64,000 nt of DNA from a virus. Position numbers and translations under genes: made by a program. The DNA lies in the IMG/VR virus record IMGVR_UViG_3300028138_000003, positions 429 to 64,428 of that record. One strand, given 5' to 3'. Below the pieces are notes generated by a model. That model worked only from the letters and a program-made list of their open reading frames with translations. It ran no database searches and had not been told where the DNA came from. Positions 402 through 44,400 of this stretch are shown in pieces; within the stretch, counting starts at the first letter, position 1; every line of letters begins with the position of its first letter.

Positions 402-701
402 TCACGTGGGCTCCCGGGGCTCTAGGCACATGGAAAGAGGCACGTCGAATCGCGCACGCGCCAGCTCTCTGTGAAGGATCGCGCGCGTCTCGCACTCGGC
501 GAACAGCATGCGTACGACCGCGGCTGCGGAGACCTCCGACACGTGCTTGACCACTTCCGCTTTGTTGTGCGTGAAGTCGACCTCGTCTATGTGCACGCGC
601 GTGAAGACCTGCCCCTTGGCGAAGGTCTCAAGCACGCGCAGCAGTTCCTTGTTGATGGCCTCAAGAGCGGAGATCTCGGATTTGCAGTATGGGCAGTTCA
701 T
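402..701 (-). CDS. hypothetical 99-aa protein (N-terminal CPYC motif)
   Basis: ATG at 701 overlaps the stop of the upstream methyltransferase (ATGA). The product begins MNCPYCKSEISALEAINKELL. Its stop at 402 is followed by the GTG start of the next gene. Confidence 0.45.
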   Translation of the reverse strand: MNCPYCKSEISALEAINKELLRVLETFAKGQVFTRVHIDEVDFTHNKAEVVKHVSEVSAAAVVRMLFAECETRAILHRELARARFDVPLSMCLEPREPT

Positions 702-1264
702 TTGAGCTTCTTGAATGCGAAGAAGAGGGAGTACTCGTCGTTCTGGTCGCAGACCTGATAGTCCACGAGATCCCAGTTCCACGCCGTCTTGGCCATAGCC
801 TCGACGACGCGATCGTAGTTGACGTTCCACAGCTGGCGCGGGTGCGCATCCGGCGCTGCGGGAATGCCGCGCTCGGGCTCGGCGCACTTGGGGTACTGCT
901 TCTCGTCGGGCAGGTAGAGCACGACGTGGGCGTTCGTCTTGATCACGCGCATCCAGTTGCGCAGCGCCTCGGGCACCTGCTTGTACGGGAAGTACTGCAG
1001 CAGGTAGGAGGAGTAGGCGTAGTCCCACTGACCGGCGGAGAACGCCGCTAGCTCCACGGCGTCGATCTGGACGTTCGGGGTGACTGGGAGGCCCATCTCG
1101 CCGTCCCGCCCATTATCTACGCCGCAGACGAACTCGGTTTCGAAGAGCCGCTGGGCTCCGCAGCCTATGTCTAGGCCTCGGCCGGCGGTATAGGGTACGG
1201 CACGCCAGCGCGTCTTGGCCGTCTCATTGACGTTTACGATCGGAAACGCTGGGTTGCGCGCCAT
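698..1264 (-). CDS. class I SAM-dependent methyltransferase (possible sugar O-/N-methyltransferase)
   Basis: Motif I is present (RGLDIGCGAQRLFETEF). The ATG at 1264 has an AGGAAG RBS 6 nt upstream. An alternative TTG start lies at 1291. Confidence 0.6.
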   Translation of the reverse strand: MARNPAFPIVNVNETAKTRWRAVPYTAGRGLDIGCGAQRLFETEFVCGVDNGRDGEMGLPVTPNVQIDAVELAAFSAGQWDYAYSSYLLQYFPYKQVPEALRNWMRVIKTNAHVVLYLPDEKQYPKCAEPERGIPAAPDAHPRQLWNVNYDRVVEAMAKTAWNWDLVDYQVCDQNDEYSLFFAFKKLK

Positions 1265-1300
1265 CAAAGCTTCCTGGTGCTCGAGGGGCAATCATCTTAG

Positions 1301-1331
1301 GGCAAAAGAAAAGGGGCCACAAGGGCCCCTT
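1301..1331 (-). terminator. rho-independent terminator downstream of the fibre-like gene (minus strand)
   Basis: Perfect 8-bp GC-rich stem AAGGGGCC / GGCCCCTT (1311-1318 and 1324-1331) with a 5-nt loop. On the minus strand it is followed by TTCTTTTGCC (1301-1310). Confidence 0.7.
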
Positions 1332-1362
1332 AAAAAGAAAGACAGTTTTTATTGGATTCGTG

Positions 1363-2028
1363 TTACCGGCTGAACGATCCGCCCGGGGTCCAAGTGTACT
1401 CGATTTCCACTGCGTACTGCGCCAGCGTATCGGTTCCACGCGAGACGACGAGAACGTCGTTCGGTCCTACGGTGAGACCACCGTTCGGGCCAGAGGGGAA
1501 CACGTAGTTGCCCTGCGTGTTGGTGCCGGCAGGAGCCGTCACGATCACGGTGCAGGTTCCGCCAACCAGCGGGATCACGGTGGGGTTGTAGGCCACCTGA
1601 GTTCCGAGGCCAACGAACTGCGTGCCGGTGGGTCCAACGTAGCTGCCGGTCAGGGTCCCGACGACGTTGGTGTAGATGCAGAACTGCACCTTGTTGATGC
1701 CGGTGCCGAGGTTCGTCCCGTTGCCGACGGTTACCGCAGTCGCGGTGGCAGTTCCGAAGACCTGCGCGTTGTACGACTGGAGGGTAAGACCGATGAAGTC
1801 AGCAGCCGTGGGGGCCACGAGCGGGATCACGGTGATCGAACGAACCTGCTTGCCCATGAGTCCGCCGCAGAGCGCGGCGTTCGGGCTTCCGCCGTTGTTC
1901 GTCGCGGAGCCGAGAGCTCCGAGAACGAATACGGCAACCTGCGGATCCGGATACTGCTCGTCGTATGCGAACGATCGTCCGCCGCCCGGGAGCAGAAGGG
2001 GTGAATTGACTGACGGTTGGTTAGCCAT
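1363..2028 (-). CDS. Gly/Thr-rich beta-structure (tail-fibre-like) protein, 221 aa
   Basis: The composition resembles fibre and adhesin proteins (GTATATAVTVGNGTNLGTG..., TVIPLVGGTCTVIVTAPAGTNTQGNY). It is a monocistronic unit with its own strong terminator and sits among the glycosylation genes. Confidence 0.5.
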   Translation of the reverse strand: MANQPSVNSPLLLPGGGRSFAYDEQYPDPQVAVFVLGALGSATNNGGSPNAALCGGLMGKQVRSITVIPLVAPTAADFIGLTLQSYNAQVFGTATATAVTVGNGTNLGTGINKVQFCIYTNVVGTLTGSYVGPTGTQFVGLGTQVAYNPTVIPLVGGTCTVIVTAPAGTNTQGNYVFPSGPNGGLTVGPNDVLVVSRGTDTLAQYAVEIEYTWTPGGSFSR

Positions 2029-2175
2029 TGAATGAGTCCTCTATGAGTTGTCGCCACCCGACATACGGAACCAATGCGGGTCCGCAGGGATGGCTGCAGA
2101 GGACTCGCCGACCCCCTGTATAGGCGTACAGGGGCGGCGGGGGAAGCTCGACCGGGTCAGGCTGTGATCAGGCTC

Positions 2176-2391
2176 TCACTTACCGGCGGGGCCGGGGACG
2201 CATCCCTCCGCCCCGTGGACGACCCCGTCATTCGTGGCCCAGTAGTTCGGCCACACGATCCAACCGTGGGGGCAAACGCTGTTCCGGCCGACCCGCTCCA
2301 TATAGCCGGGCTCGGGAGTGACGCAGTTGTTCGGTCGTATGCGCTGCGGGCCGAGATAAGAGGTCGGCTCAATCCTGATCTTCGCTTTCAT
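2176..2391 (-). CDS. hypothetical small Cys-containing protein, 71 aa
   Basis: GGAG RBS lies 8 nt before the ATG at 2391. An ATGA overlap joins it to the stop of the glycosyltransferase gene. Confidence 0.4.
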   Translation of the reverse strand: MKAKIRIEPTSYLGPQRIRPNNCVTPEPGYMERVGRNSVCPHGWIVWPNYWATNDGVVHGAEGCVPGPAGK

Positions 2392-3389
2392 CTGGTCAGC
2401 TCCTTGATTGCTTTGGCAGCCTCGATACACAGGGTCAGGGCGTCCTGCGCACGATAATTGAAGGCCTCCACGCCTCCCGGGAAGACCGAGAGGTTGTAGC
2501 CGCGCAGGCAGCAGTACATGGCGAACATGGACGTGGTCAGCAGCATCGTGTGGAGCCCGGGCGCCTCCACGGCGTCAGTGGCCTCTTCGATCATGGTGTT
2601 GAGCCACTCGATCTGGTTGAGGAAGTCCCGCTCCTTGCACTGGAGCGCTGCGGGGCTGAAGTGCTTGCGGCCGTATTCCGTCATGTTGGAACCAGGCACA
2701 GGCGCCCGCATCACGAGCAGTGGGCGCGGGTCGAACAGGATCGAGCCCTTGACCGCAGCGTGCGCCACGACCATGTGATCCCAGCCGGCGCACATGTGGC
2801 GCACTGGCACCTGCCGGCGGATCTCTTCGTTCCACAGGCCGAATAGCGGCGTGCAGTCGATGCCGCTGATGATCCACTGGGGCACGAAGGGCAGCGGCAT
2901 GTTGCCTGCGGATTGCAGGTAGTTGGCGTACTGCCCGACGAACTGGTCGTCCTCGTTAACCTGCGCCGTGTGCGTGTAGACGAGTGCCGGCTTGTTGCCG
3001 GCCTTGCGCTCGTTGTCCAAGCGGCTCACGAGGGTCGCAAGATGCTCGGAGTTGGGCCAGTAGTCGTGCCCGCCCAGCGTGATGCTGTAATCGACAGGCA
3101 GCGAGGAGATGTATTCCCAGCCAAACTTCATGGCGGGAATGCCAGCGAGGCCCTGCGGCATCGCAACGAACACCACCTTGCCGGGATTCGACTCCACGTA
3201 GTTGAGCGCGATCTGATCCGCTCCGTCGAGGCTGTGGTTATCGAAGATGTAGAGCGTGAAGTCTTTGTAGCTCTGGTTGAGCACGGACTCGATCGCCTTC
3301 GCAATGTGCTTGGCGTTGCCGTAGTTGTTGATCCAGACAGCTACCTCAGACACGAGTCTTCTCCCTTCCGCGACCGAAGTTACCGCCAA
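2388..3389 (-). CDS. family 2 glycosyltransferase (GT-A fold)
   Basis: The N-terminal GT2 signature is present (VWINNYGNAKHIAKAIESVLNQSYKDFTLYIFDNHSLDG, DxD-type). There is no C-terminal TM segment. An alternative GTG start at 3353 has a GGGAGA RBS. Confidence 0.75.
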   Translation of the reverse strand: MAVTSVAEGRRLVSEVAVWINNYGNAKHIAKAIESVLNQSYKDFTLYIFDNHSLDGADQIALNYVESNPGKVVFVAMPQGLAGIPAMKFGWEYISSLPVDYSITLGGHDYWPNSEHLATLVSRLDNERKAGNKPALVYTHTAQVNEDDQFVGQYANYLQSAGNMPLPFVPQWIISGIDCTPLFGLWNEEIRRQVPVRHMCAGWDHMVVAHAAVKGSILFDPRPLLVMRAPVPGSNMTEYGRKHFSPAALQCKERDFLNQIEWLNTMIEEATDAVEAPGLHTMLLTTSMFAMYCCLRGYNLSVFPGGVEAFNYRAQDALTLCIEAAKAIKELTR

Positions 3390-3615
3390 CCGACGGGTGC
3401 TGGGTGTAGATCCCTTGCTTCGATCTGTTCTCTTGCGTCCGCGCTCTGTTGACGAGCGTGCTCACCTTGGAGCGCCGTATGCGCTGAGCCAGATTGAGGC
3501 GCGGGCGCACCGGGTGCAGCAGTGGCAAGGAGCCGCCGCACTCCGTGCAGACTCGCTTCACGAACAGCGTGTCCTTGCCGCAGGGAGCGCAGGGCGCGTT
3601 AACCAGCTTGGCCAT
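3346..3615 (-). CDS. zinc-ribbon protein, 89 aa
   Basis: Two CxxC pairs are present (CAPCGKD...CTECGG). GAGGTG RBS lies 6 nt before the ATG at 3615. The 3' end overlaps the start of the GT2 gene. Confidence 0.4.
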   Translation of the reverse strand: MAKLVNAPCAPCGKDTLFVKRVCTECGGSLPLLHPVRPRLNLAQRIRRSKVSTLVNRARTQENRSKQGIYTQHPSVGGNFGRGREKTRV

Positions 3616-3681
3616 AGAACACCTCAAACAAACCGTCGGTGAAGTCGAACGTCTTCTCGACGTCCGGCAGGTCGTCCATGC

Positions 3682-4014
3682 TCAGGGGCACTTGGTTAGG
3701 TTCCCACCCGGAGCGATATAGATTGCTGTCGGGCAGCCGGCGTCGTTCGCCTTCAGGGTGCTTTGGTCCCATGAGCTACTTACCAGTAAGAGCGTCGCGC
3801 TCTGCGCGCTCGGCGTTGATGACGACGAGGTCGTGCTCGGCTGCGCTGATAAGCTGTTCGACAGCGCTTTCAACGCTTCCGGCAGCTGGAGCTGCTCCCG
3901 ATGCGGGGGCGGCGGGACCTGATAGCACGGGGCAGCTACCGTGAGTGGCTTGGTAGTTGCGCAACCTGCGAGTAAGGTCATCAGCGTTGGTAGCAGCAGC
4001 TTTGAGCTGTTCAT
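3682..4014 (-). CDS. o-spanin (Rz1-like lipoprotein), embedded in and extending past Rz
   Basis: The +1-frame ORF starts MNSSKLLLPTLMTLLAGC (signal peptide with LAGC lipobox). A proline-rich stretch follows (PPPPHREQLQLP). Confidence 0.55.
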   Translation of the reverse strand: MNSSKLLLPTLMTLLAGCATTKPLTVAAPCYQVPPPPHREQLQLPEALKALSNSLSAQPSTTSSSSTPSAQSATLLLVSSSWDQSTLKANDAGCPTAIYIAPGGNLTKCP

Positions 4015-4249
4015 CCTGTTTCTCCTGAATTGTGGCGAGAGCGATCCCGTACTCTTTGTCGAGCCGGTCGATTGTCTCTTGGGCCTCGGCCTTGGTTTTC
4101 TCGCTGGCAGCTTGCACGGCAGCCACTTCATGCGCTGCGCCGATGCGGCGCTCGTGCACGGTGTAACAGCCGAAGGCTGTCAGCAGCGCGACGATCGCGC
4201 CGACGTACAGCCAGTCTTTCAACGGGATCAAATTCAACAGTGCTAACAT
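3776..4249 (-). CDS. i-spanin (Rz-like)
   Basis: The N-terminal TM segment is LALLNLIPLKDWLYVGAIVALLTAF. It is followed by a charged coiled-coil periplasmic domain. An o-spanin ORF is embedded in another frame. Confidence 0.7.
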   Translation of the reverse strand: MLALLNLIPLKDWLYVGAIVALLTAFGCYTVHERRIGAAHEVAAVQAASEKTKAEAQETIDRLDKEYGIALATIQEKQDEQLKAAATNADDLTRRLRNYQATHGSCPVLSGPAAPASGAAPAAGSVESAVEQLISAAEHDLVVINAERAERDALTGK

Positions 4250-4383
4250 TTTGGGTCTCCTGCCGTGTCGTGTTCGGACAGTGGGACCGGGGCCGGCTCC
4301 TCCTGCGAAACCGGCTCCCGATGATGGTATTTATACCTGATATCCGCCCCGAAGAACAGCAGGCCGACTACGAGCCAGATCAT
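4246..4383 (-). CDS. small single-TM protein, 45 aa
   Basis: The product is MIWLVVGLLFFGADIRYKYHH.... GGAGG RBS lies 6 nt upstream. Its stop overlaps the Rz ATG (ATGTTAG). It falls below the 60-aa threshold of the ORF track. Confidence 0.4.
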
Positions 4384-4495
4384 CTGCGCCTCCAGTAGTT
4401 ACCGATCCAGACGCGGTACCGGGACCGGGCCCAGTTCCGGGGATCGGAGTATTCCTTCCACGCGCGCAGCAGCGCGATGCGCACCCTGATAGGGG

Positions 4496-5785
4496 TCACG
4501 GTCCAACCTGCTGCGTGGCGAAGCCCTGAATGCTGTTACCGCTCGCCGTATCGCCCGTGTCGGGCTCGGGCAGCTGCGCGGCAGCGTACGCGGAGAAGAG
4601 GATCCCCACGCTCGCCGTATCGCCCGCGCCGCCCGCCAGGCTATTGCCCGTGACGCTGACGTAGGGGCATCCCTCAAGGAGTATGCCGATTGCGCGCGTG
4701 GCGCCGTTCACGGTGTCCACGTAGGCTAGGTCGTTGTTGCTGATCGCGCCGTCGTGCACGTTATAGAGCGCGTAGATCCCGGCGTTCGCGCTCGCGAGGA
4801 TGCGATTGCCGTTGACGGTGAAGAACGCGGTGCCCAAGTCCAAGCCGATGGCCGGGGAGTTGGTGCTCGACATGGTGTTGCCGGCGAGAGTGAGATCGAC
4901 ACTGGTCGCAAACTCGCTCAGCCCCGCGCCGGTCGTGGTGTTGTTGGCGAACGTCGCGCCCTTTGAGTACTCGCTGTAAAGCGGATCGGCAGTGCCGTGC
5001 GTCGTGACACTGATGCGCTGCACGGTCGCATTCAGCGTGCTGAGAATCGCGACGCCCACTGCGCTGCCGGCGGCAGAGGGATCGACGACTATGCTCAAGT
5101 CCTGCACCGCAAGATCCTGCGTCACGAAGATCTTCTGAAAGCCCACGCCGCTCGTGATCGTGCCGCCGGTGCTTGGCGTATACGGGAATGGCGTGCTGAA
5201 GGCTTGCCGGAACGGCACGGTGACGTTGACTGTCGTGCCGCTGACGTTTGCAACCTGCACCCAGTCGACCGTGGTCGCGTACGAGGTGTGGAAGGTGCCG
5301 TCCTTAATGCCGGGGTCCCAGTTCGTTATCAGCAGCCAATCGCCGGCGCCAATTCCCGCCAGGTCGCTCGAGTTGGCGGCCTGGAACGAGGTGTCGCCCA
5401 CGTTGATGGCGCCAGCCACCTCAAGAGGGATAGTGGCCGAGAGCGCGCAGCGCGTCGTGATGACGCGATCATTCTGGCAGTGCTTGACAGTGCCCGGGGC
5501 GGGCGGCTCGTAGAACAGTACCGTGCTCGCACCGTGGCCCTGCAGCGTCGTGCCGCTATGGGACATCATCAGCGTGCGCGAGATGTGGTACGTGCGCGCG
5601 TCCAGCTGCACGACTCCGCCGGCATCCAGCAGCGCTTGCACGGCTGCGGTGTCGTCGACCACCGGAGGTGGCGGCGGCGCCTTGATATCGGGCGGCGGCA
5701 CGGTAACGTGCGGCGCCGGTGGCGTGACTCCCCCACCGCAAGCGGCGAGGGCGAGTGTTACTGCAATCGGGATTAACTTGTTCAT
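4496..5785 (-). CDS. exported lipoprotein with right-handed beta-helix (pectate-lyase-like) domain
   Basis: The signal is MNKLIPIAVTLALAACGG (lipobox). A Pro-rich linker follows. Repetitive beta-helix segments are present (NVHDGAISNNDLAYVDTVNGA..., GNSLAGGAGDT). ATGA coupling joins it to the upstream small gene. Confidence 0.6.
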   Translation of the reverse strand: MNKLIPIAVTLALAACGGGVTPPAPHVTVPPPDIKAPPPPPVVDDTAAVQALLDAGGVVQLDARTYHISRTLMMSHSGTTLQGHGASTVLFYEPPAPGTVKHCQNDRVITTRCALSATIPLEVAGAINVGDTSFQAANSSDLAGIGAGDWLLITNWDPGIKDGTFHTSYATTVDWVQVANVSGTTVNVTVPFRQAFSTPFPYTPSTGGTITSGVGFQKIFVTQDLAVQDLSIVVDPSAAGSAVGVAILSTLNATVQRISVTTHGTADPLYSEYSKGATFANNTTTGAGLSEFATSVDLTLAGNTMSSTNSPAIGLDLGTAFFTVNGNRILASANAGIYALYNVHDGAISNNDLAYVDTVNGATRAIGILLEGCPYVSVTGNSLAGGAGDTASVGILFSAYAAAQLPEPDTGDTASGNSIQGFATQQVGP

Positions 5786-5910
5786 TTCCACAACCTCATG
5801 ATGACGTTCGCGGCGACATCGACTGCCTTGTTGAGAGCGTAGATGAGAATGCCCGCCAATACGACAGCGATCCCCAGCGCGATGCTGACGATGATCAGTG
5901 CGGTTTTCAT
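5785..5910 (-). CDS. small single-TM protein, 41 aa (holin/antiholin-like)
   Basis: The product is MKTALIIVSIALGIAVVLAGILIYALNKAV.... GGAGAA RBS is present. ATGA overlaps occur at both ends. Confidence 0.4.
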
Positions 5911-6077
5911 TCAGTTCTCCATGGCGTGCTCGTGAGCATTCGCCAGATACGTTTCTGCAGCGCCGCCTCGGCGCGGTATCGGCGTGCGTTGGCCGCGCGC
6001 CGTGCTCTGTTGGCCATCTGCCATGCCCGCTTGCCGGCTTTGTAGGCCTCGTGCTGTTCGGGAGTTAGCTTTCTCAT
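5907..6077 (-). CDS. small basic protein, 56 aa
   Basis: The product is MRKLTPEQHEAYKAGKRAWQMANRARRAANARRYR.... It is ATGA-coupled on both sides. Confidence 0.35.
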   Translation of the reverse strand: MRKLTPEQHEAYKAGKRAWQMANRARRAANARRYRAEAALQKRIWRMLTSTPWRTE

Positions 6078-6235
6078 GGCTCCATTTCCACCAATGCGGT
6101 GATTGCCATGAACACCCAACTGATCGTGGCCAGCAGCGCCCAGCCTGTGGGCAGCACGCTCCACATCAAGCCAAGCGCGCCGAAGAACACGAAGGCTATG
6201 GCGCCGGAGAGCAGTATCCTGATGAGCGTGCTCAT
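6074..6235 (-). CDS. two-TM small membrane protein, 53 aa (class II holin-like)
   Basis: The product is MSTLIRILLSGAIAFVFFGALGLMWSVLPTGWALLATISWVFMAITALVEMEP. It has two hydrophobic helices and is ATGA-coupled. Confidence 0.45.
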   Translation of the reverse strand: MSTLIRILLSGAIAFVFFGALGLMWSVLPTGWALLATISWVFMAITALVEMEP

Positions 6236-6406
6236 CGTGGCATCCCTCGCAGGCAGATGGCGTGCTCCATGCCTACGAGGCCTTGGCCCATCCGCTCGTT
6301 GACCCAGCGGGCCTGCGCCGTGCACTCCGCTTGCGTAGCCTGCGGGATTGCCTGCGATGTGTTCCAGTCCATGCCGAAAATGATCAGATACCAGATCGTG
6401 TTCATG
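6232..6406 (-). CDS. hypothetical 57-aa protein
   Basis: The product is [34 protein letters not shown].... Its start overlaps the DNA methyltransferase stop (ATGA), and its stop overlaps the next ATG. Confidence 0.35.
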
Positions 6407-7370
6407 CTGCGATCTCCATTACGCTTTCGATGAAGGCTTGCGCGACCTGAGGAACGATTGCATTGCCGTAGCCCCGCAGGAGTCCCACTCGACCGGGTAC
6501 CCCATGAGCCAGCGGGAATGTGCCGGGTTCAATTGGCCGCCACTTCCCATCTCGGCAGCCAACCAAGCAGTGCGTCCAAGTAGCGCGTTGATCGGCGCGG
6601 AGCCGTCGCTGGCTCCATCCTTGTGGTCGCGCGTCGTCGGGGTTGGCCAACTCGCCAGCTGGGCTTGCAACGATAGACTCGTAAGACTCACTCCGCAGGC
6701 GCCGTTCAAGTTCCGCTTGCGATTCAGGAACTGCTCCGGCGTGCCGCCCGCTTCCTGTGCGGCTGGGGTGGCCCACGTGGCCAGCTTCGCTGCCCCGCCC
6801 AGCTTCAGACACGGACGGTTGTGATCCCCGTTGCCGTAGCTGTAGTCGCTCCCCTTGCTGTCGTTCACCACCGGCGAGGGCCACCCAATAGAGCCGCTGG
6901 CGGATGTGCGGGGCGCCGACGCTCGCAGCGCACAGATCCGCAGCCCCAACGGCGTAACCCTGTGCTTCCATGTCAGTTGATACAGAGTCGAGCCAGTTGA
7001 GGCCAAGCGGGCTCGCAACTTGCTCTCCAAAGACGACTGGAGGCTTGCACTCGCGAATGAGCGCCTCCCATACGTGCCAAAGGTCTCGGGCATCATTCTC
7101 CCGCCGGCGGCTGTTGGCAACGCTGAAGGGCTGGCACGGACAAGATCCGGTCCAGACTGGTCTGTCGTCGGGCCACCCCGCCATCCGGAGAGCAAGAGGC
7201 CACCCTCCGATGCCAGCGAAGAAATGCGCTTGAGTGTATCCGCTGAGCTCTCCTGGTTTGACCTCTTCGATCGATCGCTCATCGACGTCTCCTGCCGGCA
7301 GATGGCCGGCCAATATCAGTTCGCGCAGCCACGCTGCGGCCTTGGGGTCGAATTCGTTGTAGTAGATCAT
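6402..7370 (-). CDS. DNA (cytosine-5)-methyltransferase, orphan (no cognate restriction gene seen)
   Basis: C5-methyltransferase motifs are present: [47 protein letters not shown] low-complexity target-recognition region lies between them. Confidence 0.8.
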
Positions 7371-7379
7371 CGCGGCTCT

Positions 7380-7808
7380 TTACTCATTGGGAAACCCTTT
7401 CCACTTGTTCCAGCAGGAATGGTCCGCACCCCAAGAGGTGTGGCCTCCTGCTGCCCAGTAGTTCCGCCGGGCGCGTTTGTAGGTGTCGATCCGGTACTTG
7501 AGGGTCTGGATGGTCGCACCCCGGCCTTTCTTCCACGAGTTCCGGCGCCAGTAGCGCTCGCTGATCGCCTTGCAGCGCGGACAGGCGTCGCGCTTTTGCT
7601 GGTCGTCGAACCACTCACTGCTCGGACGCGCAGAGTTCGCATGCTCCGCAGGGCAGCGCTCGTATTCGGAATAGAAAGGCTCGACGTTGCCATCGTGCGG
7701 GTACTGGATCATGTCCATGCGCAGCTTGAGGATCTGCGCGTTGAGTTCGTCCTTGGCCTCGGCGAGGATCCGCGCGAATGACTCGCGTGCTTGTGCTCTG
7801 CTGTTCAT
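7380..7808 (-). CDS. hypothetical basic protein, 142 aa
   Basis: This is an ORF-track call; a CPRC motif is present. Its start overlaps the stop of the upstream gene (ATGA) within the coupled operon. Confidence 0.45.
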   Translation of the reverse strand: MNSRAQARESFARILAEAKDELNAQILKLRMDMIQYPHDGNVEPFYSEYERCPAEHANSARPSSEWFDDQQKRDACPRCKAISERYWRRNSWKKGRGATIQTLKYRIDTYKRARRNYWAAGGHTSWGADHSCWNKWKGFPNE

Positions 7809-8005
7809 TTGCGTAGCAACTCCTCAGTCTCGGCGACAGCCGCCGCCAGTTCAGTGATCGAGTCAGCCCGCCATGCGGCCTCCTCGGCCTCGCTCTGCTC
7901 CGGAAAGTCGTCCAGCACGTCGTGGCACCGGCGCAGCAACTCGCGCGTCTGCGTCTTGAGCTTGCGCAGGTAGCTCGGATCGTTGCGACCCTGTGGGTTA
8001 CTCAT
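7805..8005 (-). CDS. hypothetical acidic protein, 66 aa
   Basis: ATGA overlaps occur at both ends. Confidence 0.4.
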   Translation of the reverse strand: MSNPQGRNDPSYLRKLKTQTRELLRRCHDVLDDFPEQSEAEEAAWRADSITELAAAVAETEELLRK

Positions 8006-8211
8006 TTGATTAACTCCCGTGCTTTGGATGTTGCTTTCTGTAGCTCATCGAGGGCCTTAGTGCGGGCGAAGGTGTCGTCGGCCGACTCTGCTATGAATGT
8101 CTCAGCCGCCAGCACGAGGTTGCGCAGCGCCACTCGCGTCATATCCGCCTTGAGTATTGCGGCCTGCTTGGCATTCTTGGGTACGAAATGCTGCTGTTGT
8201 GACTTAGGCAT
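8002..8211 (-). CDS. hypothetical protein, 69 aa
   Basis: ATGA overlap downstream. The ATG at 8211 lies 8 nt inside the upstream stop (ATGCCTAA). Confidence 0.4.
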   Translation of the reverse strand: MPKSQQQHFVPKNAKQAAILKADMTRVALRNLVLAAETFIAESADDTFARTKALDELQKATSKARELIK

Positions 8212-8665
8212 GGGCCTTCTCCTGCTGCGCCGCCCAGATGCGCGCGATGTCCGCAGCCTTGTAGCACGTGCGTTTGTCGGTGCCCTCGATGGTCACGATG
8301 ACGTTGTACTTGGCACGCAGCCGCGCCCCCGTGACCACCATGCGGCGCTGCCCGTAGTCGGTGATGAGTAGCGTGCCCACCGGCGGCAGCTTGATCCCGG
8401 GCGAATACCATGAGTCTCCCGGCTTGCCGGTGGGTATAGCCTCGACGACGCGCAGGTGCTCGTAGTCGCTGGCCTCGCGGCTCGTGCCGCCCGCGAGCGT
8501 GCCCTCCACCTTGAAGGTGAACGAACCGTCGGGGCGGTACTTGCAGTTGCCAAGCTTGATGCTCAGCCCGTCGAACTCTTCGATCCGGTCAGAGATTCCG
8601 GACAGTAGCGCGTCAATCTCAGTCCTGAGTGTCTTCAGCTGTGCGAGTATCAGTTTGGTTTCCAT
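8204..8665 (-). CDS. hypothetical protein, 153 aa (N-terminal coiled coil)
   Basis: The internal ATG at 8665 has an AGGAGG RBS 6 nt upstream. The product begins METKLILAQLKTLRTEIDALL. Confidence 0.5.
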   Translation of the reverse strand: METKLILAQLKTLRTEIDALLSGISDRIEEFDGLSIKLGNCKYRPDGSFTFKVEGTLAGGTSREASDYEHLRVVEAIPTGKPGDSWYSPGIKLPPVGTLLITDYGQRRMVVTGARLRAKYNVIVTIEGTDKRTCYKAADIARIWAAQQEKAHA

Positions 8666-8813
8666 GGCGCCCTCCTGAGGCGTTACGGATTGGTGAAAGT
8701 GTAGCAGTTCCGCGTGCCCATGCACGCTCCTGGTTTTCGCGGTATCGGCGTAGGTCGTCGAGCCGCGCCCACTCACGGTCGAGCAGGGTGAATTCCCATT
8801 CAGTGAAGCTCAT
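8619..8813 (-). CDS. hypothetical protein, 64 aa
   Basis: GGAGAA RBS is present. Its 3' end overlaps the next gene by 46 nt. Confidence 0.3.
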   Translation of the reverse strand: MSFTEWEFTLLDREWARLDDLRRYRENQERAWARGTATLSPIRNASGGRHGNQTDTRTAEDTQD

Positions 8814-8986
8814 AGGCCGTTCTCCAGTTCGCGCATGGCCATCCCCTTCCAGTACGGGTTGCATATCGACTCTGCCGTCGACGCAGCCTCGTCCGCCGCC
8901 AAGCGGGCATGCTGGATCAGCCTGCGCACCTCCTCGTAGAGATGCTTATCGTCGGGCGAGCTAAGCTGGCGCTTAGTGGATCCCAT
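8810..8986 (-). CDS. hypothetical protein, 58 aa
   Basis: ATGA coupling joins it to the downstream ORF. The product begins MGSTKRQLSSPDDKHLYEEV. Confidence 0.3.
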   Translation of the reverse strand: MGSTKRQLSSPDDKHLYEEVRRLIQHARLAADEAASTAESICNPYWKGMAMRELENGL

Positions 8987-9185
8987 AAGTGGGTGCTCCT
9001 CTGGGCCCGCCACAGCACGCAGGATCGCCGCAGGGCATCTGGGGATGCTGGCTTGCAGGATCGGACAGTCGCGGCTTGCGCGCCGCTCGGAGCACGCGGT
9101 GGAAGTCCTCGGTGCACTCCTTGCACCACCCCGACGGGGTGCGCTCCCGTATGAGGTCACAGATCGCGCAGCGCACGGTTACCAT
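8973..9185 (-). CDS. Cys-rich (zinc-ribbon-like) protein, 70 aa
   Basis: CAICD...CKEC motifs are present. Its start overlaps the RHH gene stop (ATGGTAA). Confidence 0.35.
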   Translation of the reverse strand: MVTVRCAICDLIRERTPSGWCKECTEDFHRVLRAARKPRLSDPASQHPQMPCGDPACCGGPRGAPTYGIH

Positions 9186-9493
9186 GTGTCCATGTCCTTG
9201 CGGTCGAGTGACTGTTCCACGGTCGTCTGGTCGCGCCGCTCGGCGGCCGCCTGGATTGCGGCGAGCGCGTCCCGCTCCTGAGCGATGCAGCGCTCAATGC
9301 ACGCGCCGATACCCGCCGACAGGTTCTCCGTGTAACCGGCCTTGGCAGCCTGCGCCAACGCGTAGTCAGAGTGGCGCGGGGAGAGCGTGATCGACGTTGC
9401 GTACTTGCGTTCGGACAGTGCCTTGCGCCTGCGGCCACGCTTGCGACCGGAGTAGTTGAGGATGCGGGACACGTCTTCGTCGGTGAAAGTCAT
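9179..9493 (-). CDS. ribbon-helix-helix (CopG/Arc-type) DNA-binding protein, first gene of the leftward operon
   Basis: AGGAGA RBS lies 7 nt upstream. The segment ITLSPRHSDYALAQAAKAG matches the RHH beta-strand plus helix. It sits directly downstream of the operator-like inverted repeats. Confidence 0.55.
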   Translation of the reverse strand: MTFTDEDVSRILNYSGRKRGRRRKALSERKYATSITLSPRHSDYALAQAAKAGYTENLSAGIGACIERCIAQERDALAAIQAAAERRDQTTVEQSLDRKDMDTW

Positions 9494-9547
9494 TTTAATC
9501 TCCTATGTGCGATAGTACAGCAAATGAGTCCGGACAGTAGCCCAATC

Positions 9548-9663
9548 TTGACAAAATTGACAGACATTTTGAATTTCAGGTTCTTTTCTTAGGAATACAT
9601 TATAGAACTATTTCCTCACACTAGTACAAAAAGGGAAAATCAACAAAATGTGTCAATTTGTCA
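9548..9663. promoter_or_regulatory. operator-like inverted repeats flanking a candidate leftward promoter
   Basis: TTGACAAAATTGACA (9548-9562) and its near reverse complement TGTCAATTTGTCA (9651-9663) lie in a 270-bp AT-rich intergenic region. A perfect TATAAT (minus strand, plus coordinates 9599-9604) sits between them. Confidence 0.45.
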
Positions 9664-9771
9664 TTGACTTGAATCTCTCGCATAATCAATAGCCTGCAAG
9701 CGGGTACATCTATTTTACCGCCGAAAAATTGAGGGCGGTGCGCACTGAGTGCGCGGCGGGAACGGACAGTG

Positions 9772-9903
9772 TCACAAGCGATCGTCCGGCTTGCCACGCG
9801 AGAGGCGCCATACGATCCAGCTGGCGCCGCCTATGACCACGGTGAGGCTAAACAGGCACCAGAGGGCGAACCATTTAAATAATAGGACAATTAGAGTGAA
9901 CAT
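9772..9903 (-). CDS. small hydrophobic peptide, 43 aa
   Basis: The product is MFTLIVLLFKWFALWCLFSLTVVIGGASWIVWRLSRGKPDDRL. GGAG lies 9 nt upstream. It falls below the ORF-track threshold. Confidence 0.3.
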   Translation of the reverse strand: MFTLIVLLFKWFALWCLFSLTVVIGGASWIVWRLSRGKPDDRL

Positions 9904-9909
9904 GGCGGG

Positions 9910-10005
9910 CTACTCCAGTTTGGTGATGATCCAATTCATGACGGGAAAGCCTACGGCTATCGATAGGGCGGCGAGGCCCAAGGCTTGGAACAGTGCGACT
10001 AGCAT
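9910..10005 (-). CDS. small hydrophobic peptide, 31 aa
   Basis: The product is MLVALFQALGLAALSIAVGFPVMNWIITKLE. Its ATG overlaps the stop of the upstream gene. Confidence 0.25.
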   Translation of the reverse strand: MLVALFQALGLAALSIAVGFPVMNWIITKLE

Positions 10006-10826
10006 GCTGGCCTCGCAAAGTAGGGGCGCACGCCCCGTGAGTTTATGTGCGTCATGACAGCGAACCCGCCATGACCGTTGATGACTATTGAGCCGCGCCG
10101 CCCATCGGCGCCACCGCACGCCATGCACGTGGCGCAGGTAAGCTTCTTTCCCGCCTCTGCGGACGCTGGGCAAGTTATCTCTTTATCTTGCTTGCCGGGA
10201 TCGCAGGGCATGGCTACGCGGAATGTACGCCAGCCCGCCGCTTGTGCCTCACGCGCGTCGATCAGGCTATCGGCTGAAGCCATGCACAGGGTGCGCAGCT
10301 GCGGCGCGTGGCGCCATTGGTGCGTATAGCCAGTGTGCCCGCTGGCATAGAGGGTAAGTTCCCGCCATACAAAGTCAGGTACTGCCGCCGGATCCCCGTA
10401 AGTTCCCAAGCGCACAAGCTTGCCGCGCCCAAGGTGGCTTATGGCTTGCCAGCCTTGCCCGCGCTCCGCGTAGCGTCCCCGTTTCCACGCGCGCCAGACT
10501 CCCAGCGGGCCTTGGCCGACGTTGACGTAGCACGTGCGCGCCTTGTGGGGACCGTCCGCATACGAGCTCGCCTGGCCAGGCTCGAGTGGTGTCTGGACAG
10601 TGCCACGGTGCGGACATTGCCCGCATATGCTGACGTCGGCGCCAGTGCGCAAGGCTGCGATGGGATCAACGTCGGCGCGCAGGATATAGGTTTGCACCAT
10701 GGCGCCCGTTTTGCGGTTGCTACTGCTAGCCGCTAAGCCGGTCGCTATTACCACGATAGGCGCGCCATCGAGTAGCGATGCGCCTTGCCATAGAACTGCG
10801 CCGTTACTTTTTGCCATTGGCGTCAT
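9999..10826 (-). CDS. hypothetical protein, 275 aa (early region)
   Basis: This is a long ORF on the coding strand of the early operon. CGQCPHRG and CATCMACGG Cys clusters are present. Confidence 0.5.
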   Translation of the reverse strand: MTPMAKSNGAVLWQGASLLDGAPIVVIATGLAASSSNRKTGAMVQTYILRADVDPIAALRTGADVSICGQCPHRGTVQTPLEPGQASSYADGPHKARTCYVNVGQGPLGVWRAWKRGRYAERGQGWQAISHLGRGKLVRLGTYGDPAAVPDFVWRELTLYASGHTGYTHQWRHAPQLRTLCMASADSLIDAREAQAAGWRTFRVAMPCDPGKQDKEITCPASAEAGKKLTCATCMACGGADGRRGSIVINGHGGFAVMTHINSRGVRPYFARPAC

Positions 10827-38407: not shown

Positions 38408-41400
38408 ATGGCTGCTGCGGAAGACGCTCCGGCCGAACAACAACCTGCACGCCCAGCATACTGGGATGCCCCGATGGGCGAAGGCGCTCCCGCGCCGCAG
38501 CACGATGACGCCGCCTCCATGGGCCGGCAGTCTGTCGCGGGTCCCGACGCCGAGCAGGAAGCGCCCCGGCCCGCCTACTGGGACGCCCCGCTAGCCGCGG
38601 CGCCCGAGCCAGAAGCCAAGCCGACCGAGGCCCCCAAGCCCGCTGAGAGCACTTTCGGTACTGACGTTCTGACGGGCATCGGTGCGCGCGGCGCGCAGAT
38701 GTATCACGGCGCCAAGGAAGCCATGGCGAACCACCAATTCTCTTCAGCGCGCGAAGAATTCTACCGAACCATGGTCCTTGGCGACGCCGTCCGCGACGCG
38801 GGCAAGGCAGGCATCGCGCTTATCGACGACCCGGTGGTGCAGGAGATCTCCAAGCACGTAGGCATGCGCCCTGACCAGTTCGTCCGCGGATGGTACAACT
38901 ACGTCAACCTGTCCGAGGAAGAGAAGCAGAAGCGCCTCGGCGAGCTCCAGCAGCAGATGGTCGAAGCCACCGGCAACATCGCCGAGGCGTCGCACGGTCG
39001 CGCGCTGGCGGGGCAGGTGTCACGCGAGGCCATGCCGCGAGAACACCAGTTTGCCTACAAGGCCCTGACGATGGCCCCCGAGATACTGGGCGGGCTGGGC
39101 ATTTCCATGATCCCCGGTGGCCAAGCCCCGGCAGCTGCGATGTTCATGTCCGACTTCGGACTCACCAGCTACGCCCAAGCGCGCGACAGCGGCGCATCCG
39201 ACGACCAAGCCAAGGTCTACGGCGTGCTCTCGGGACTCGCGGCCACCGTGCCTCAGGTACCCGTCATGACGGCCCTGCAGAAGACCCCCGCGGCGCAGGC
39301 GCTTATGCAGACTGCGATCGGCAAGGTACTGGCCCAGAACGCCGCCGGCCGCGTAGCGGGCGCCGTAGCGAGCCAGGCGACCAACGAGTCGCTGGCGCTT
39401 GCCGTCCAGAACACCCTCCAGATCGCCATCGACAAGGGAGTGCTCGACCAGAACACCACCCTCGGCGAGGCGCTGCGCACGATCGGGGAAGGCGCGCTCA
39501 TGGGCGCGACCTTCGGCTCCTTCAGCGGCGCCGCACACAGCGGCGTCAACCGGCTGGTCAATGGTCCTGCCGCTACGCAGGGCCCGGGCGCCAGCGACGC
39601 AATGACCAACCGCATCCTCGAGGCGCAGCACACGGCCATGGACGCCGCGCAGACTGACGCCGAGCAGGCGGCCTTGGCGGCAGGCGGCGACGCCCTCGAC
39701 GGCAAGGTAGCCGCCATTCAGGCGAACGCCCATGTCAGTGCCGAGCACGACGCCGCGACAGTGCACCAGACCCGGGTCGAGGCAGCCCGCAAGTCGGCCG
39801 AGGACGAGATCGCCAACGCGCAGGCGGCCGAAGACGAGCTGAAGAAGGATCAGGACTTCGGCGCCGCCGAGCGGCAGGCCGGCAAGGTCGGCAATGCCCC
39901 GAGCGCCGATGAGGCGTTCGCCCAGCGTGAGCAGGAGGGAGCGCTCGCCGCCAAGCGCGCGGAGGCCCAGAAGGACCGGGACTTCGTTCCCGCCAAGAAC
40001 CAGGCGGCCGATCAGGATGTCGCGCAGGCAGAGGTCGCCGAGGAGAAGGGCGGGGCCTCACCGGCCAAGCCGACGCTGGCCGAGGCGCTGCCGACCGAGC
40101 AGGTGAACGCCCTGCAGGCACTTAGGGACCGGCTGGCGGCCCAAAGATCGGCCAACGAACCGGCCAAAGAGACTACCGCCGCGGAGCGCCTCAAGGCGCA
40201 GAACCCGGAGGACGACTTCCAGCAGCTGGGTCCTGAGGTGCCTAAAGCCACCAAGGGCGAGCCCAAGTTCATCCTCGACCCGCTCGACGAGCTAGCCCCG
40301 GGCAAGGCCAAAGCCCCGGAGAAGGCCCCAGAGCCGACCGAGGATGAGGAGGAGCCAACGGGCGGCCCGCCCCCCGTAACGGCGCAGACGCTGGCTGAGC
40401 GCCGGCAGCAGGCCTTGGACGCAGCTATGGCCGCCAAGGTCCGCGGTCCCGTGGCCAAGGAAGCTCCGATAGCCGCCCACCGGCGCGACCTCACCGCACT
40501 GGAGCGGGATCTGCCCGCGCCGGCGGAGGGCACCACGCGCCTGTGGCGCGGCGGCAAGAAAGGGGAAGGCCCGGGTGAGCAGACCCGCTTTACTGACGAT
40601 CCGGCCGGCATCGCGATGCCCTTCGAGAAGGGATACGGCGGTAGGCTGTTCCACGTAGACGTCCCCACCGACCAGTTGGAAGGGTACCGCAACGGGCCGA
40701 ACGACCCGGGTGCTTTCAACCTACCCAAAGAACTGGCTGCAAAGGCGCAGGACTCTCGCAATCTAGCCAAGGACAAAGTAGCGCCGAAGGGCGCGCTGGC
40801 CGAGCGCCGCGCCGCCGCCCGACCGCCGCTGCAGCAGGGGGTCGACCCGGCCGAGCGGCTCCTCGAGGAGCAGGTCAAGAAGGACGCCGACGCCGCCGCT
40901 GCCAACCCGAAGGGCAAGCGACCCCCGCTGGTGCAGGGCCGAGACCTTGCGGGGCCGCTGATTGAGGCGAAAGCTCGCAGAGACGCCGAAGCCGCGGCGG
41001 CGCCTACGACCACCGAAGAGGCCCCTGCCCCAGCTACCGCCGAGGCACCGATCGCCGCTCCTGAAGCCGCTGAAAAAGAGTCGGCTCGCATAGAAGCCGA
41101 ACGCACGCGCCCAACCGATGCCCTGTCGGCGGCCCCGGCCAAACCGAACCGGCTGGCCGCGATCCGCGCTGCGCAGGAAAAGCGCAACCAGCGCATCCGT
41201 ACCCCGGCCGAGCAGAGCATCATCGACGACCTGCGCGCGGGGCGGGCGAAGAAGGGCGAAGAGCCGCCACGCTTCGCCGACGTGCGGCAAGCCAATGTGT
41301 GGAAGCGCATGAACGACGAGCTTGCCGAGCACCGAGCGGCAATGGACAAGGCGCGCGACGCCGGAGACGTGCGCGGGTATAACGCCGCAGCAGACAAGTA

Positions 41401-44400
41401 CGACGCGCTGCACGAGCGCATCATGCGTGTCGCCAAGCAGCAGGCCGAGGCACCCCCGGAGCGTCCGGCGCCCGGCTCCAAGCCCACTGGCCGGTTCGCG
41501 GCAATCAAAGATCGCGCCGCCAACCTAAAGCGTTGGTTCGGCAAGAGCGTGGTCAAGAACGCCGACGGCTCGCCGAAGGTCGTATACCATGGCACCCCGG
41601 TGTGGGAGCGCAACGGCAAGAGTCTCGGAGACGTCACGAGCTTCGATCGCAATGCTGCCGGCAAGGCGCTGAACCGCACGCCAGGGATGGACGCCGTTGG
41701 CTCGTGGTTCACAGATAGTCCTGAGGGCGCGGGCGACTTCTCGGGTAGCGAAGGCGTAGTCTACCCAACGCACCTCAAGATCGAGAACCCGTGGCGCCCC
41801 ACGAGCTTCGACGAGTTCCTTGCCCGTGGCCGCAAGGCTGCCGGCCTGCCGCCCAAGGGCAATCCAATGGGCCGGTTCGATCCGCAGTACCTGCGCAACG
41901 AGCTGAAGAGGGCTGGGCACGACGGCATTATCTTCCCGAGCATGAAGATCGATGGCCGCGAGCAGCAGTACCACGTCGCCTTCGAGCCAGAGCAGGTGAA
42001 GTCAGCTGTCGGCAATAGTGGCGACTTCGATCCAGCCAATCCCGACATCCGCAGCAAGACGGCCGAAGAGAATATAGCCGAGGACATGGACCGCGCGACT
42101 AACCCGCGCATGACCAAGGACGAGGCGACCGAGCACCTCAAGCCGGTGCTCGCCAAGATCCACCCCGCGGTGGCCGCGCGCACGCACGTGCACGGCGACA
42201 AGAATGACGCACTGGCCCTGCCCGATAGCCAGCTGTCTGCGCGCACCAAGGAGCAGTTGCGCAACTACGAGGGCACGCCGGCGGGCCTGTACGACCCCGA
42301 CACGAACACTGTGCACGTCTTCGGCGACGGGCATCTGGCCAGCCCGACAGACGACGGACGTCCGGGCGGGCAGAGCGAAATCATCAAGACGCTGGCCCAC
42401 GAGTACACGCACATGGGTCTGCGTAACATATTGGGCGCCGACTATCGGAAGACCATGCTCGACCTCGCCAACAAAGTGAAGAATCGACAGCTCGCCAAGG
42501 ACCTCATCGAAGCGCGCGGATTCGACGTAGGCAGCGAGGAACACATGACCGCCCTTGGCGATGAGTACGCGGCGCACTTGGCCGAGGACGCCAACGCCGA
42601 TCCGGGCCTCTGGCGAACGGTCGTCGACGGCGTGCGGCGTGCGCTCCGCAAAGTCGGCTTGGTGCGCAACTGGACCGACGACGATATTCGCGATCTGGTA
42701 CGGCGCAACAACCCGATGCTAGGCGAGACCGATGCCGCGGCTCGAGCGGGCCTCGCGTACAAGGGCGACGTCCCGCGGTTCGCCGACAACAAGGCGACGG
42801 ACCACCAGATCGATCGCGATCTCGACCCGACGGATCCCAAGGCGATCCAGTACAAGCTGGCGCGCACTGTGGAAGAGCAGATGGACGCCAACCGGGGCTC
42901 GATCGACTCCCGCACAGCGTGGGACAACTTCGTGGCGCAGGCCCAGAAGACAGGACGCAACTTGGCCGAGTGGGGCCGGGGCACCAATGACAACAAGCGG
43001 CTGGGCTGGATCGGGCTTCGCAACATGATGGACTTCATGCGCAAGGACCTAATGCCGGACCTCCATGGCTTCATCGACGACCACGACGCGATGGATGGCA
43101 TGCGTGGGCGCCTCGTCAACGAGGGCGCGGACATCGCGCGCAAGTGGTCGAAGTGGCAGGCCAAGCAGGACGACCGAGGCTGGGGCTTGTCCGAACTCAT
43201 GCACTCCTCGACGCTGCTGGGGCACGACGCCTCGAAGCCGTACGAGTCGCAGTACACCAAGGAAGAGCTGGCCGAGTCGCCCGACAAGCGTCAGGACGAT
43301 CGGTATCAGCGCGCCCTGCATGCAGGGCTGAAGAAGACTTACGACTCCGACGCTCTCGGCTCCGAAGGCCGCGAACTCTACAACACGGTGCGCGACCACT
43401 ACGCGACTGCCCGGCAGCGCATCTTCGACGCGCTCACCCGGCGTATCGAGGAGACTGGCGCAGACGAGAACACGAAGAAGCAGCTCATGGCGGAACTCCG
43501 GCAGCGGTTCGAATCTGGCCGGGTCAAGGGCGTGTACTTCCCGCTGCAGCGCTTCGGCAACCGCTGGGCCCGCGCGATGGACGCCGAGGGCAACCACGTC
43601 GCCTTCTCTCGCTTCGAGAACAAGGACGACCAAGACCAGTGGCTCAAGCACATGCGCGATCAGGGGCTGGAGGTCGACAAGGGTCAGCAGATCGATTCGA
43701 AGTCTGAGATGGAGCGCATCGATCCCGACTTCGTGAAGAAGGTCATGTCGCTGGCGCACGACGCGGACGGCTCCGGCGAGCTGGAGAAAGAGATCTGGCA
43801 GACCTACCTCAAGGCCATGCCTGAGATGTCGATGCGCAAGCACTTCATCATGCGGCAGGGGCGGCTCGGCTTCTCGCAGGACGCGCTGCGCGCGTTCGCC
43901 TACAACTCATTCCATGGCGCTCACCAGCAAGCACGGCTGGAGTATGGCAATAGACTAGATACTCGACTAGCAAATGTGAAGAAGCAGGCCGAGGCGCTGG
44001 CGACCGTAAGTGCCCAGAATCCCGGCGATAAGCTTGCAGATAAGAACTCCGAGTGGGGCGCTGCGCTGGCCAAAGAACTAGAACAGCGACTAGATTGGAT
44101 CAAGAATCCGCGGTCCTCGCCGTGGGCGTCGAACCTCACTAAGTTTGGCTTCCTCTGGTACCTCGCCGCGGCACCGGCGACGGCGCTGCGCATCTCGCTG
44201 CAGAACACCATGCTGGCCCAGCCACAGATTGCCCGGCACTTCGGGCAGATCGGGGCGACCAAGGAACTGAGCAAGGCGGTGCTGCAGTGGGCCGGCGCCC
44301 GCGGCAAGCTCTCCGACAAGCTCCGCGGCGATGAGCGCGCGGCCTTCGAGCGCGCGGCCGACATGGGGATCTTCTCCAACACGAACACGACCATGCTGGC

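Follow-up and report, generated by a model that had tools for sequence, protein, structure and literature searches.

The nested methyltransferase locus

Here, we describe a leftward block of small genes in a 64,000-nucleotide (nt) stretch of viral DNA, and in particular the C5-cytosine DNA methyltransferase (MTase) locus inside it. The stretch, hereafter the window, covers positions 429 to 64,428 of IMG/VR record IMGVR_UViG_3300028138_000003. It is nearly the entire contig (about 64.4 kb, 62% GC) of a phage recovered again and again in soil metagenome assemblies (17 contigs, of which the longest has 64,439 nt) and for which no close relative was found among the 50,697 phage genomes on deposit. 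The genes between the window start and about 14 kb point leftward, the structural genes, at about 15 to 47 kb, point rightward, and beyond them the direction is leftward again. On the minus strand, 17 serial open reading frames (ORFs) with 16 junctions were read directly and tabulated, from g1 (position 9493) to Rz (position 3776). The MTase frame, which we call alpha, contains a second long ORF, beta, in its +1 frame (Table 1).

Alpha is readily recognised as a methyltransferase. It matches PF00145 over amino acids (aa) 74-171 (E=9e-15) and phrog_363 over its full length (E=1e-75), its frame matches BcepC6B gp33, and FAGxG, PCQPFS (motif IV, PCQ), GEQV, HxRxR and GNA are invariant in 121 homologues; its relatives number at least 8,000. 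In the AlphaFold2 model the predicted local distance difference test (pLDDT) exceeds 90 for aa 1-165 and 301-322 and falls below 50 for aa 171-266 and 282-300, and Foldseek aligns alpha to M.HaeIII and M.HhaI over about 170-190 columns. Sequence profiles align it to HhaI only at motifs I and IV-VIII, and general C5-MTase profiles reach motifs IV-VIII only. For a small domain, that is a recognition region with motif IX, no profile match was found in alpha past motif VIII, where pLDDT is low, and aa 171-300 are poorly conserved in alpha's own frame (amino-acid diversity 0.72-0.86 over aa 166-270). In the model alpha has no folded small or recognition domain of its own. Gene callers picked the +1 ORF in this phage, and for that reason its alpha product is missing from public protein data.

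Beta begins about 30 codons into alpha and ends 17 nt short of its end. Over most of 6480-7109, GC content at third codon positions (GC3) favours a frame other than alpha's, and the beta frame matches PMG1_00057. It opens with a helix-hairpin N-domain, continues with variable W-P-T-P modules and closes with a motif-IX-like C-terminus, and its conserved stretches are LQSSLESRL...GSTLY.LTWK...LRAS..RTS, the W(P/A)TP modules and an invariant C-terminal LNP..SRWLMG.P..W. The number of W-P-T-P modules varies among relatives, longer members carrying more of them. Homologues of beta are abundant, with more than 5,352 in one search and 26,798 cluster representatives (50% identity) in an exhaustive profile search.

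All 173 related loci that were examined show the nesting, and they span soil phages, E. coli prophages and a T4-like phage; among those that have it are an E. coli O-antigen-strain prophage, K1ind2, epsilon15, KpV2811 and the T4-like Krischvirus. Both frames are open and homologous in BcepC6B and in three further relatives (L011, L013 and L014), the +1 ORF being unannotated in BcepC6B. Most records annotate a single frame, which is alpha in RefSeq E. coli, BcepC6B and epsilon15 and beta in PMG1 and in many gene calls on metagenomes. Both frames are almost never called together, and since one frame is picked per genome the alpha and beta families look unrelated in databases, though they lie on the same DNA. 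At the nucleotide level, the sole match of the region in a megablast against phage genomes was a patch of about 100 nt that lies in the methyltransferase genes of unrelated phages. This patch (within 6441-6558; 82-89% DNA identity) is found in Pseudomonas PMG1, Burkholderia BcepC6B, a cyanophage, an EBPR podovirus and Cronobacter JC01, and coincides with a segment constrained in both frames (alpha aa 271-300).

In the 84 loci found through beta, beta lies at +1 to alpha without exception. Their beta regions hold 16 stops in the +1 frame against 291 expected from synonymous codon permutation, and 70 of the 84 are fully open in +1 (3.4 expected). Stops in the +2 frame are not depleted (965 against 876). 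A second sample consisted of 75 complete genes picked through the alpha N-terminus only; at least 200 open +1 codons were present in 73 of these, with a mean of 296 as against 74 for +2.

Such an 18-fold depletion of stops, confined to +1, is hard to reconcile with beta being an untranslated "shadow" frame, a by-product of high GC and strong alpha conservation. There is something to be said for that reading: long spurious ORFs are abundant at 62% GC, the conserved N-domain of beta overlies alpha motifs VI-VIII, and the synonymous-permutation null already yields open +1 stretches of 159 codons on average. Yet beta is also open at lower GC (alpha-picked genes down to 49%; Krischvirus, the E. coli prophage), insertions and deletions of W-P-T-P modules leave both frames open, and in 72 of 83 loci the first in-frame beta ATG is confined to a small region, no more than about 14 codons away from the start seen in the window. 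Codon-position diversity along alpha points the same way, and three constraint regimes were read from it. Over aa 1-105 and 301-322 variation sits at alpha third positions, as expected if alpha alone is constrained; over aa 106-150 and 271-300 there is little variation at any of the three positions, as expected if both frames are constrained; and over aa 166-270 variation peaks at beta third positions while the alpha protein is essentially unconserved. The beta-type variation in this last segment, together with the suppression of alpha synonymous sites exactly where beta is conserved, makes a shadow frame very improbable. Both frames show purifying selection in these patterns. We hold with high confidence that beta is a real, selected coding gene, and infer its translation from the same sequence evidence.

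Two other explanations of the locus were also considered. Two compensating sequencing frameshifts in the MTase were ruled out, as was an MTase pseudogene, both frames being open and conserved in about 170 independent loci.

A proposed two-subunit methyltransferase

What, then, might beta do? In C5-methyltransferases a large domain holds motifs I-VIII together with X, and a small domain, which makes all base-specific contacts, holds a variable recognition region and motif IX (PMC3404938). We propose that alpha would provide the catalytic large domain (motifs I-VIII, an unstructured linker and then motif X), that beta would supply target recognition and motif IX, and that the two would assemble into an active C5-methyltransferase. 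By analogy with the nested enzyme M.EcoHK31I we infer that such an alpha/beta heterodimer, and the role of beta on DNA, are probable. The heterodimer is the best-supported model because the alpha linker is predicted to be disordered, the beta modules are variable and the beta C-terminus falls, although not significantly, on HhaI motif IX.

M.EcoHK31I, reportedly described as a two-polypeptide methyltransferase by Lee, Kam and Shaw in 1995, has an alpha chain of about 309 aa. The alpha described here is of similar size (322 aa) and likewise contains a smaller second ORF in another frame. In the E. coli enzyme the beta chain lies wholly inside the alpha gene in the other frame and has motif IX, alpha bears motifs I-VIII as well as X, and several internal starts are usable (PMC2836561; PMC3404938). 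Nested two-polypeptide C5-methyltransferases are known as rare exceptions (PMC3404938). The present enzyme differs in that the variable region of alpha is unconserved and predicted to be disordered, the variable modules being on beta, and in being an orphan phage MTase with no adjacent restriction gene; the likeness is one of described architecture, not of compared sequences. M.AquI is likewise a C5-methyltransferase split in two polypeptides, in or near the variable region, but there motifs IX and X are on the second subunit, which comes after the first (PMC3404938), whereas here motif X is on alpha and beta is nested almost completely. Finally, Escherichia phages K1ind1/K1ind2 (NC_041898.1) carry a pair annotated "DNA methyltransferase", ORF28/ORF29, from the same two families and in the same +1 register. 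The record is annotation only, and the second ORF has thus been noticed by at least one annotation; a literature search returned no functional or comparative analysis of ORF28/ORF29 and no paper describing a family-wide nested architecture. The nested two-polypeptide type is already known, and the breadth of the family is the new and interesting part.

Overall, our best explanation, to which we assign a probability of roughly 0.7, is that an ordinary packed block of phage genes includes an MTase locus made of two genes in one stretch of DNA. Several observations weigh against it or against its two-subunit form. Beta found no match in Pfam, NCBIfam, PADLOC or PDB sequences, its AlphaFold2 model is poor (pLDDT 64.6, predicted template modelling score 0.32), and Foldseek against the PDB found no fold match. 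The sole hhalign match places a 17-residue C-terminal segment of beta on HhaI KLHPRECARVMGYPDSY (motif IX, residues 268-292) at E=0.21, which is not significant. In M.EcoHK31I it is alpha to which the target recognition domain is attributed, beta being given motif IX only. No single-chain MTase with a beta-like C-terminal half was found, and no top beta match carries PF00145. The window's beta start codon is itself conserved in only 41 of 83 loci. In Pseudomonas phage PMG1 (L002, 2950-3862) the alpha frame is interrupted near codon 30 and beta is intact, so beta might act without alpha. On the side of the packed block, support for g4 and g15 as genes is weak, and selection on the small ORFs is not measurable because the strain contigs are too similar.

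Further observations bear on these points. The phage tblastn matches that were checked for single-chain relatives all proved again to be +1 to an annotated gene, and in PMG1 it is beta that is annotated as the "DNA methyltransferase". Two fusion proteins were also seen: P0099 joins the alpha N-terminus (through PCQPFS) in frame to beta, and P0098 is a beta-family member fused to a Dam-type N6-adenine methyltransferase domain (PF05869). The PMG1 interruption and the P0099 fusion could be mutations, assembly errors or natural variants. The sequence of P0098 suggests that the beta module can serve a different catalytic partner.

A rival reading takes beta to be a real protein with some other function, such as regulating alpha, binding modified DNA or countering host defence. 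We regard this as unlikely, on account of the invariable nesting of beta in alpha in the same register, and because alpha, which has no folded recognition domain or motif IX of its own, should not by itself bind or recognise DNA specifically (PMC3404938). The intact beta of PMG1 speaks for the rival reading, as does the lack of significant similarity between beta and any known recognition domain; the joining of beta to an adenine methyltransferase domain in P0098 does so too, but fusion to another DNA methyltransferase fits DNA recognition as well.

The order of the motifs over the two frames is colinear with that of canonical enzymes (I-VIII, recognition region, IX, X), as it would be if one polypeptide were made by programmed frameshifting, reading alpha to motif VIII, moving +1 into the recognition region and motif IX, and moving back for motif X. 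This has the slimmest chance of the readings considered. It requires two precise shifts, no slippery sequence was seen at the junctions, and beta has an ATG and a Shine-Dalgarno (SD)-like motif of its own. The beta N-domain would be excluded from such a fusion because it overlaps alpha motifs VI-VIII, and separately expressed M.EcoHK31I alpha and beta give activity (PMC2836561).

Junctions of the leftward block

The ORFs around the MTase are packed end to end. Nine junctions are ATGA overlaps (g3/g4, g6/g7, g7/g8, MTase/g10, g10/g11, g11/g12, g12/g13, g13/g14 and g15/g16) and one is a GTGA overlap (g14/g15). Three ORF pairs overlap by 7-8 nt (g1/g2, g5/g6, g16/Rz), one by 14 nt (g2/g3) and one by 47 nt (g4/g5, where g4 is doubtful), the only gap being the 9 nt between g8 and the MTase. 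Fifteen of the 16 junctions therefore overlap, ten of them by the 4 nt of ATGA or GTGA. A GGAG/AGGAG-like motif lies 4-12 nt 5' of nearly every start in the chain. For eight contigs of this phage, independent gene calls in public records yield an identical ORF set apart from g4, g15 and the MTase: g4 and g15 are often skipped, and beta is called in place of the MTase. A six-codon mini-ORF, MSKEPR (7387-7367, minus strand), spans the g8/MTase gap, starting within the end of g8 and overlapping the MTase ATG with its TGA; it may be a relay ORF or a coincidence.

The first-pass annotation had described an uninterrupted chain of more than 18 genes, a figure that the 17 serial ORFs exceed only when two nested ORFs (Rz1 and the +1 ORF in the MTase) are counted. 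Its statement that every junction is a 4-8 nt overlap is accurate for 13 of the 16, with g2/g3, g4/g5 and g8/MTase departing from it. Eleven successive ATGA overlaps were not found, the longest pure run being five, or seven if the GTGA and the next ATGA are included. A DNA methyltransferase is indeed present in the chain, but it had been taken as a simple gene and its nested 287-codon ORF overlooked.

How unusual is this packing? For the rest of the window, where a simple codon-bias gene caller was used, 17 of the 70 other same-strand junctions (24%) are 4-nt overlaps and 39 of 70 overlap to any extent, against which the chain, with 10 of 16, is denser (Fisher p=0.006). Runs of 5 and 6 overlap junctions are also present elsewhere in the window, and in three other phages 4-nt overlaps account for 39-56% of the junctions in the corresponding regions, where runs reach 5-6. 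The chain is beyond chance when set against random sequence, and barely so when set against phage genomes. It has what ATGA packing in phage early and accessory operons generally has, namely a single strand, 4-nt overlaps, an SD-like motif inside the upstream gene and many small lineage-specific ORFs, and nothing distinguishes it from such packing in other phage operons; it is only somewhat denser than the remaining genome. Hence the chain is the usual packing of small early/accessory phage genes, denser but not different in kind, and its ORFs are supported as one densely packed same-strand block. In such a leftward block, where most stops overlap the next start and an SD-like motif lies within the end of the upstream gene, the stop-start packing would permit co-transcription and some termination-reinitiation coupling without setting protein ratios.

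The annotation had gone further, taking the tight coupling to imply stoichiometric co-expression of the MTase with small peptides that were candidates for host takeover or anti-defence. We consider a model in which the overlaps enforce such ratios and the peptides work jointly with the MTase quite improbable, even though 4-nt overlaps are enriched over the rest of the window and the ORFs are small ORFans in an early-region position, two of them membrane peptides. Overlap permits coupling, not equal stoichiometry, and stoichiometric expression does not follow from it because nearly every ORF has its own ribosome-binding motif; moreover, the one gap lies directly before the MTase. Comparable overlap chains are frequent in unrelated regions of this phage and of others. 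Among the 173 MTase neighbourhoods only g5 of the unassigned ORFs recurs, so there is no conserved unit of MTase and peptides. The proposed roles were guesses, as no match to a defence or anti-defence family was obtained in Pfam, PHROGs, NCBIfam or PADLOC, and the functional reading draws on nothing beyond the position and size of the ORFs.

Table 1. Features of the MTase locus and of the surrounding leftward block, in window coordinates.
Feature	Position	Strand	Description
alpha (MTase)	6402..7370	-	C5-cytosine DNA methyltransferase, predicted catalytic subunit; 322 aa; motifs I, IV, VI, VIII, X; PF00145, phrog_363
beta	6419..7282	-	287 codons, +1 frame inside alpha; AGGAG 6 nt upstream of ATG; phrog_1008 E=6e-28
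Upstream intergenic region	9494..9700	-	AT-rich from ~9490; ~33% GC; TATAAT ~9596-9591
g1	9179..9493	-	104 aa; first gene of chain; GC3 0.83, positive codon log-odds, AGGAG upstream
g2	8973..9185	-	70 aa; zinc-ribbon-like (judged by eye) CxxC...CxxC; overlaps g1 by 7 nt; moderate coding signal
g3	8810..8986	-	58 aa; ORFan; 14-nt overlap with g2
g4	8619..8813	-	64 aa; doubtful as a gene; ATGA with g3, overlaps g5 by 47 nt; GC3 0.52, lowest of chain
g5	8204..8665	-	153 aa; AGGAGG 5 nt upstream
g6	8002..8211	-	69 aa; ORFan; 8-nt overlap
g7	7805..8005	-	66 aa; ORFan; ATGA
g8	7380..7808	-	142 aa; Cys-containing; ATGA; weak TniQ-like match E=8e-4
g10	6232..6405	-	57 aa; ORFan; ATGA; fails hydropathy test for transmembrane (TM) helices
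g11	6074..6235	-	53 aa; two predicted TM helices; ATGA
g12	5907..6077	-	56 aa; very basic (15 K+R); ATGA; weak coding signal
g13	5782..5910	-	42 aa; one TM helix; ATGA
g14	4496..5785	-	429 aa; lipoprotein-type signal LALAAC and right-handed beta-helix (PF13229, PF05048, E ~2e-5); ATGA
g15	4380..4499	-	39 aa; Arg/Trp-rich; GTGA start; GC3 0.85, neutral codon score; uncertain gene
g16	4243..4383	-	46 aa; ATGA; short hydrophobic N-terminus under TM threshold
Rz-like i-spanin	3776..4249	-	157 aa; phrog_312 E=1e-5; TM residues 13-32; 7-nt overlap with g16
Rz1-like o-spanin candidate	3682..4014	-	Lipobox LLAGC, Pro-rich; begins inside Rz in other frame

Small ORFs and spanin genes

Judged by in-frame GC3 and codon log-odds, coding support is clear for g1, g3, g5-g8, g10, g11, g13 and g14, weaker for g2, g12, g15 and g16, and poor for g4; it may be that g4 and g15 are not genes at all. 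Pfam and PHROG searches gave no significant match for g1-g4, g6-g8, g10-g13, g15 or g16, and NCBIfam and PADLOC gave none for the longer ones. The 12 shortest ORFs had no tblastn match in the 50,697 phage genomes, and the 14 unassigned ORFs other than g5 had none in 1.0 Mb of MTase neighbourhoods from the 173 other loci. These profile and genome searches agree with the annotation in that the small ORFs are mostly ORFans, and most of them appear to be lineage-specific accessory genes. Conservation in related phages, to which the annotation itself had appealed, was found for g5 alone: it is the sole unassigned ORF with a homologue in another phage (L011/L012; 36% identity in L011), and a metagenome scan with g5 for intermediate relatives recovered only the same phage.

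Individual assignments are few. The first gene of the chain, g1, had been called a ribbon-helix-helix protein; it has no Pfam, PHROG, NCBIfam or PADLOC match at E<=0.01, and the resemblance is by eye only. Weak matches were obtained for g2 (phrog_30170, E=0.005) and for g12 (Alanine_zipper, below the family cut-off). Hydropathy identifies g11 (two helices) and g13 (one) as membrane peptides, in addition to the Rz anchor and the g14 signal peptide. The claim that several of the small peptides are membrane-embedded is accordingly borne out for g11 and g13 and not for g10 and g16, which fail the same test.

Strain contigs of the phage (L003-L010) are near-identical, with 0-2 nt differences per gene, except for g8 in L004 and g14 in L003. 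In L004 (5475-5903) a diverged g8 allele differs by 70 nt and 28 aa with its ATGA borders unchanged, which from the sequence looks like module exchange at gene boundaries. In L003 (7881-8786) g14 is frameshifted.

The chain ends in a pair of spanin genes. The Rz1 candidate has no PHROG match; its ORF extends about 90 nt beyond the end of Rz and overlaps the next ORF, d1 (3599-3772), and GC3 favours d1 over 3600-3689 and Rz1 over 3690-3779. Neither an endolysin nor a holin was identified adjoining the spanins. In lambda-type Rz/Rz1 pairs, as in alpha/beta, the second gene begins inside the first on the same strand in a different frame, but the Rz1 overlap is about 240 nt and concerns a short lipoprotein, whereas alpha and beta share 864 nt, which takes in nearly all of the host gene.

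Flanking regions

The AT-rich region upstream of g1, in which a perfect TATAAT occurs, is a probable promoter or regulatory region. A strict sigma-70 scan found no minus-strand site in it, and the counts from a promoter and terminator scan were not above those of shuffled sequences. A 25-codon ORF at 9567-9490, whose TGA overlaps the g1 ATG (ATGA), has no coding signal. No terminator-like site was found on the minus strand of 2000-10200 in a scan for the consensus only.

Downstream of the chain (402-3389) lie a family-2 glycosyltransferase gene (2388-3353) and, from gene calls on strain contig L003, a class-I methyltransferase; in the relative L011 (10905-14930), Fic and further methyltransferase genes are added. 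The glycosyltransferase, methyltransferase and Fic genes may form a surface- or host-modification module. Elsewhere in the window, the structural region contains a single ORF of 2,405 codons (38408-45625).

Implications

The overlap chain itself changes nothing, being normal packing around lineage-specific ORFans. The MTase locus may have a wider bearing. We see about an even chance that a very large phage and prophage C5-MTase family (at least 26,798 clusters at 50% identity) is obligately two-subunit, with the recognition subunit nested in the +1 frame over some 700-1,000 nt. If so, few long overlapping gene pairs on one strand would be more widespread among bacterial viruses, and M.EcoHK31I would be an example of a common architecture and not a curiosity. 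Thousands of phage methyltransferase annotations would be incomplete, and predictions of phage self-methylation and its specificity would be unreliable because only alpha or only beta has been called.

The family would also offer a natural and evolutionarily stable split C5-methyltransferase, with its recognition modules on a separate small protein. Such an enzyme would help to explain how phages alter the specificity of their methylation, and it would be of use in engineered targeted methylation, the purpose to which M.EcoHK31I has been put. Lastly, alpha and beta would provide a clean and richly sampled case for the evolution of two long proteins in the same DNA.

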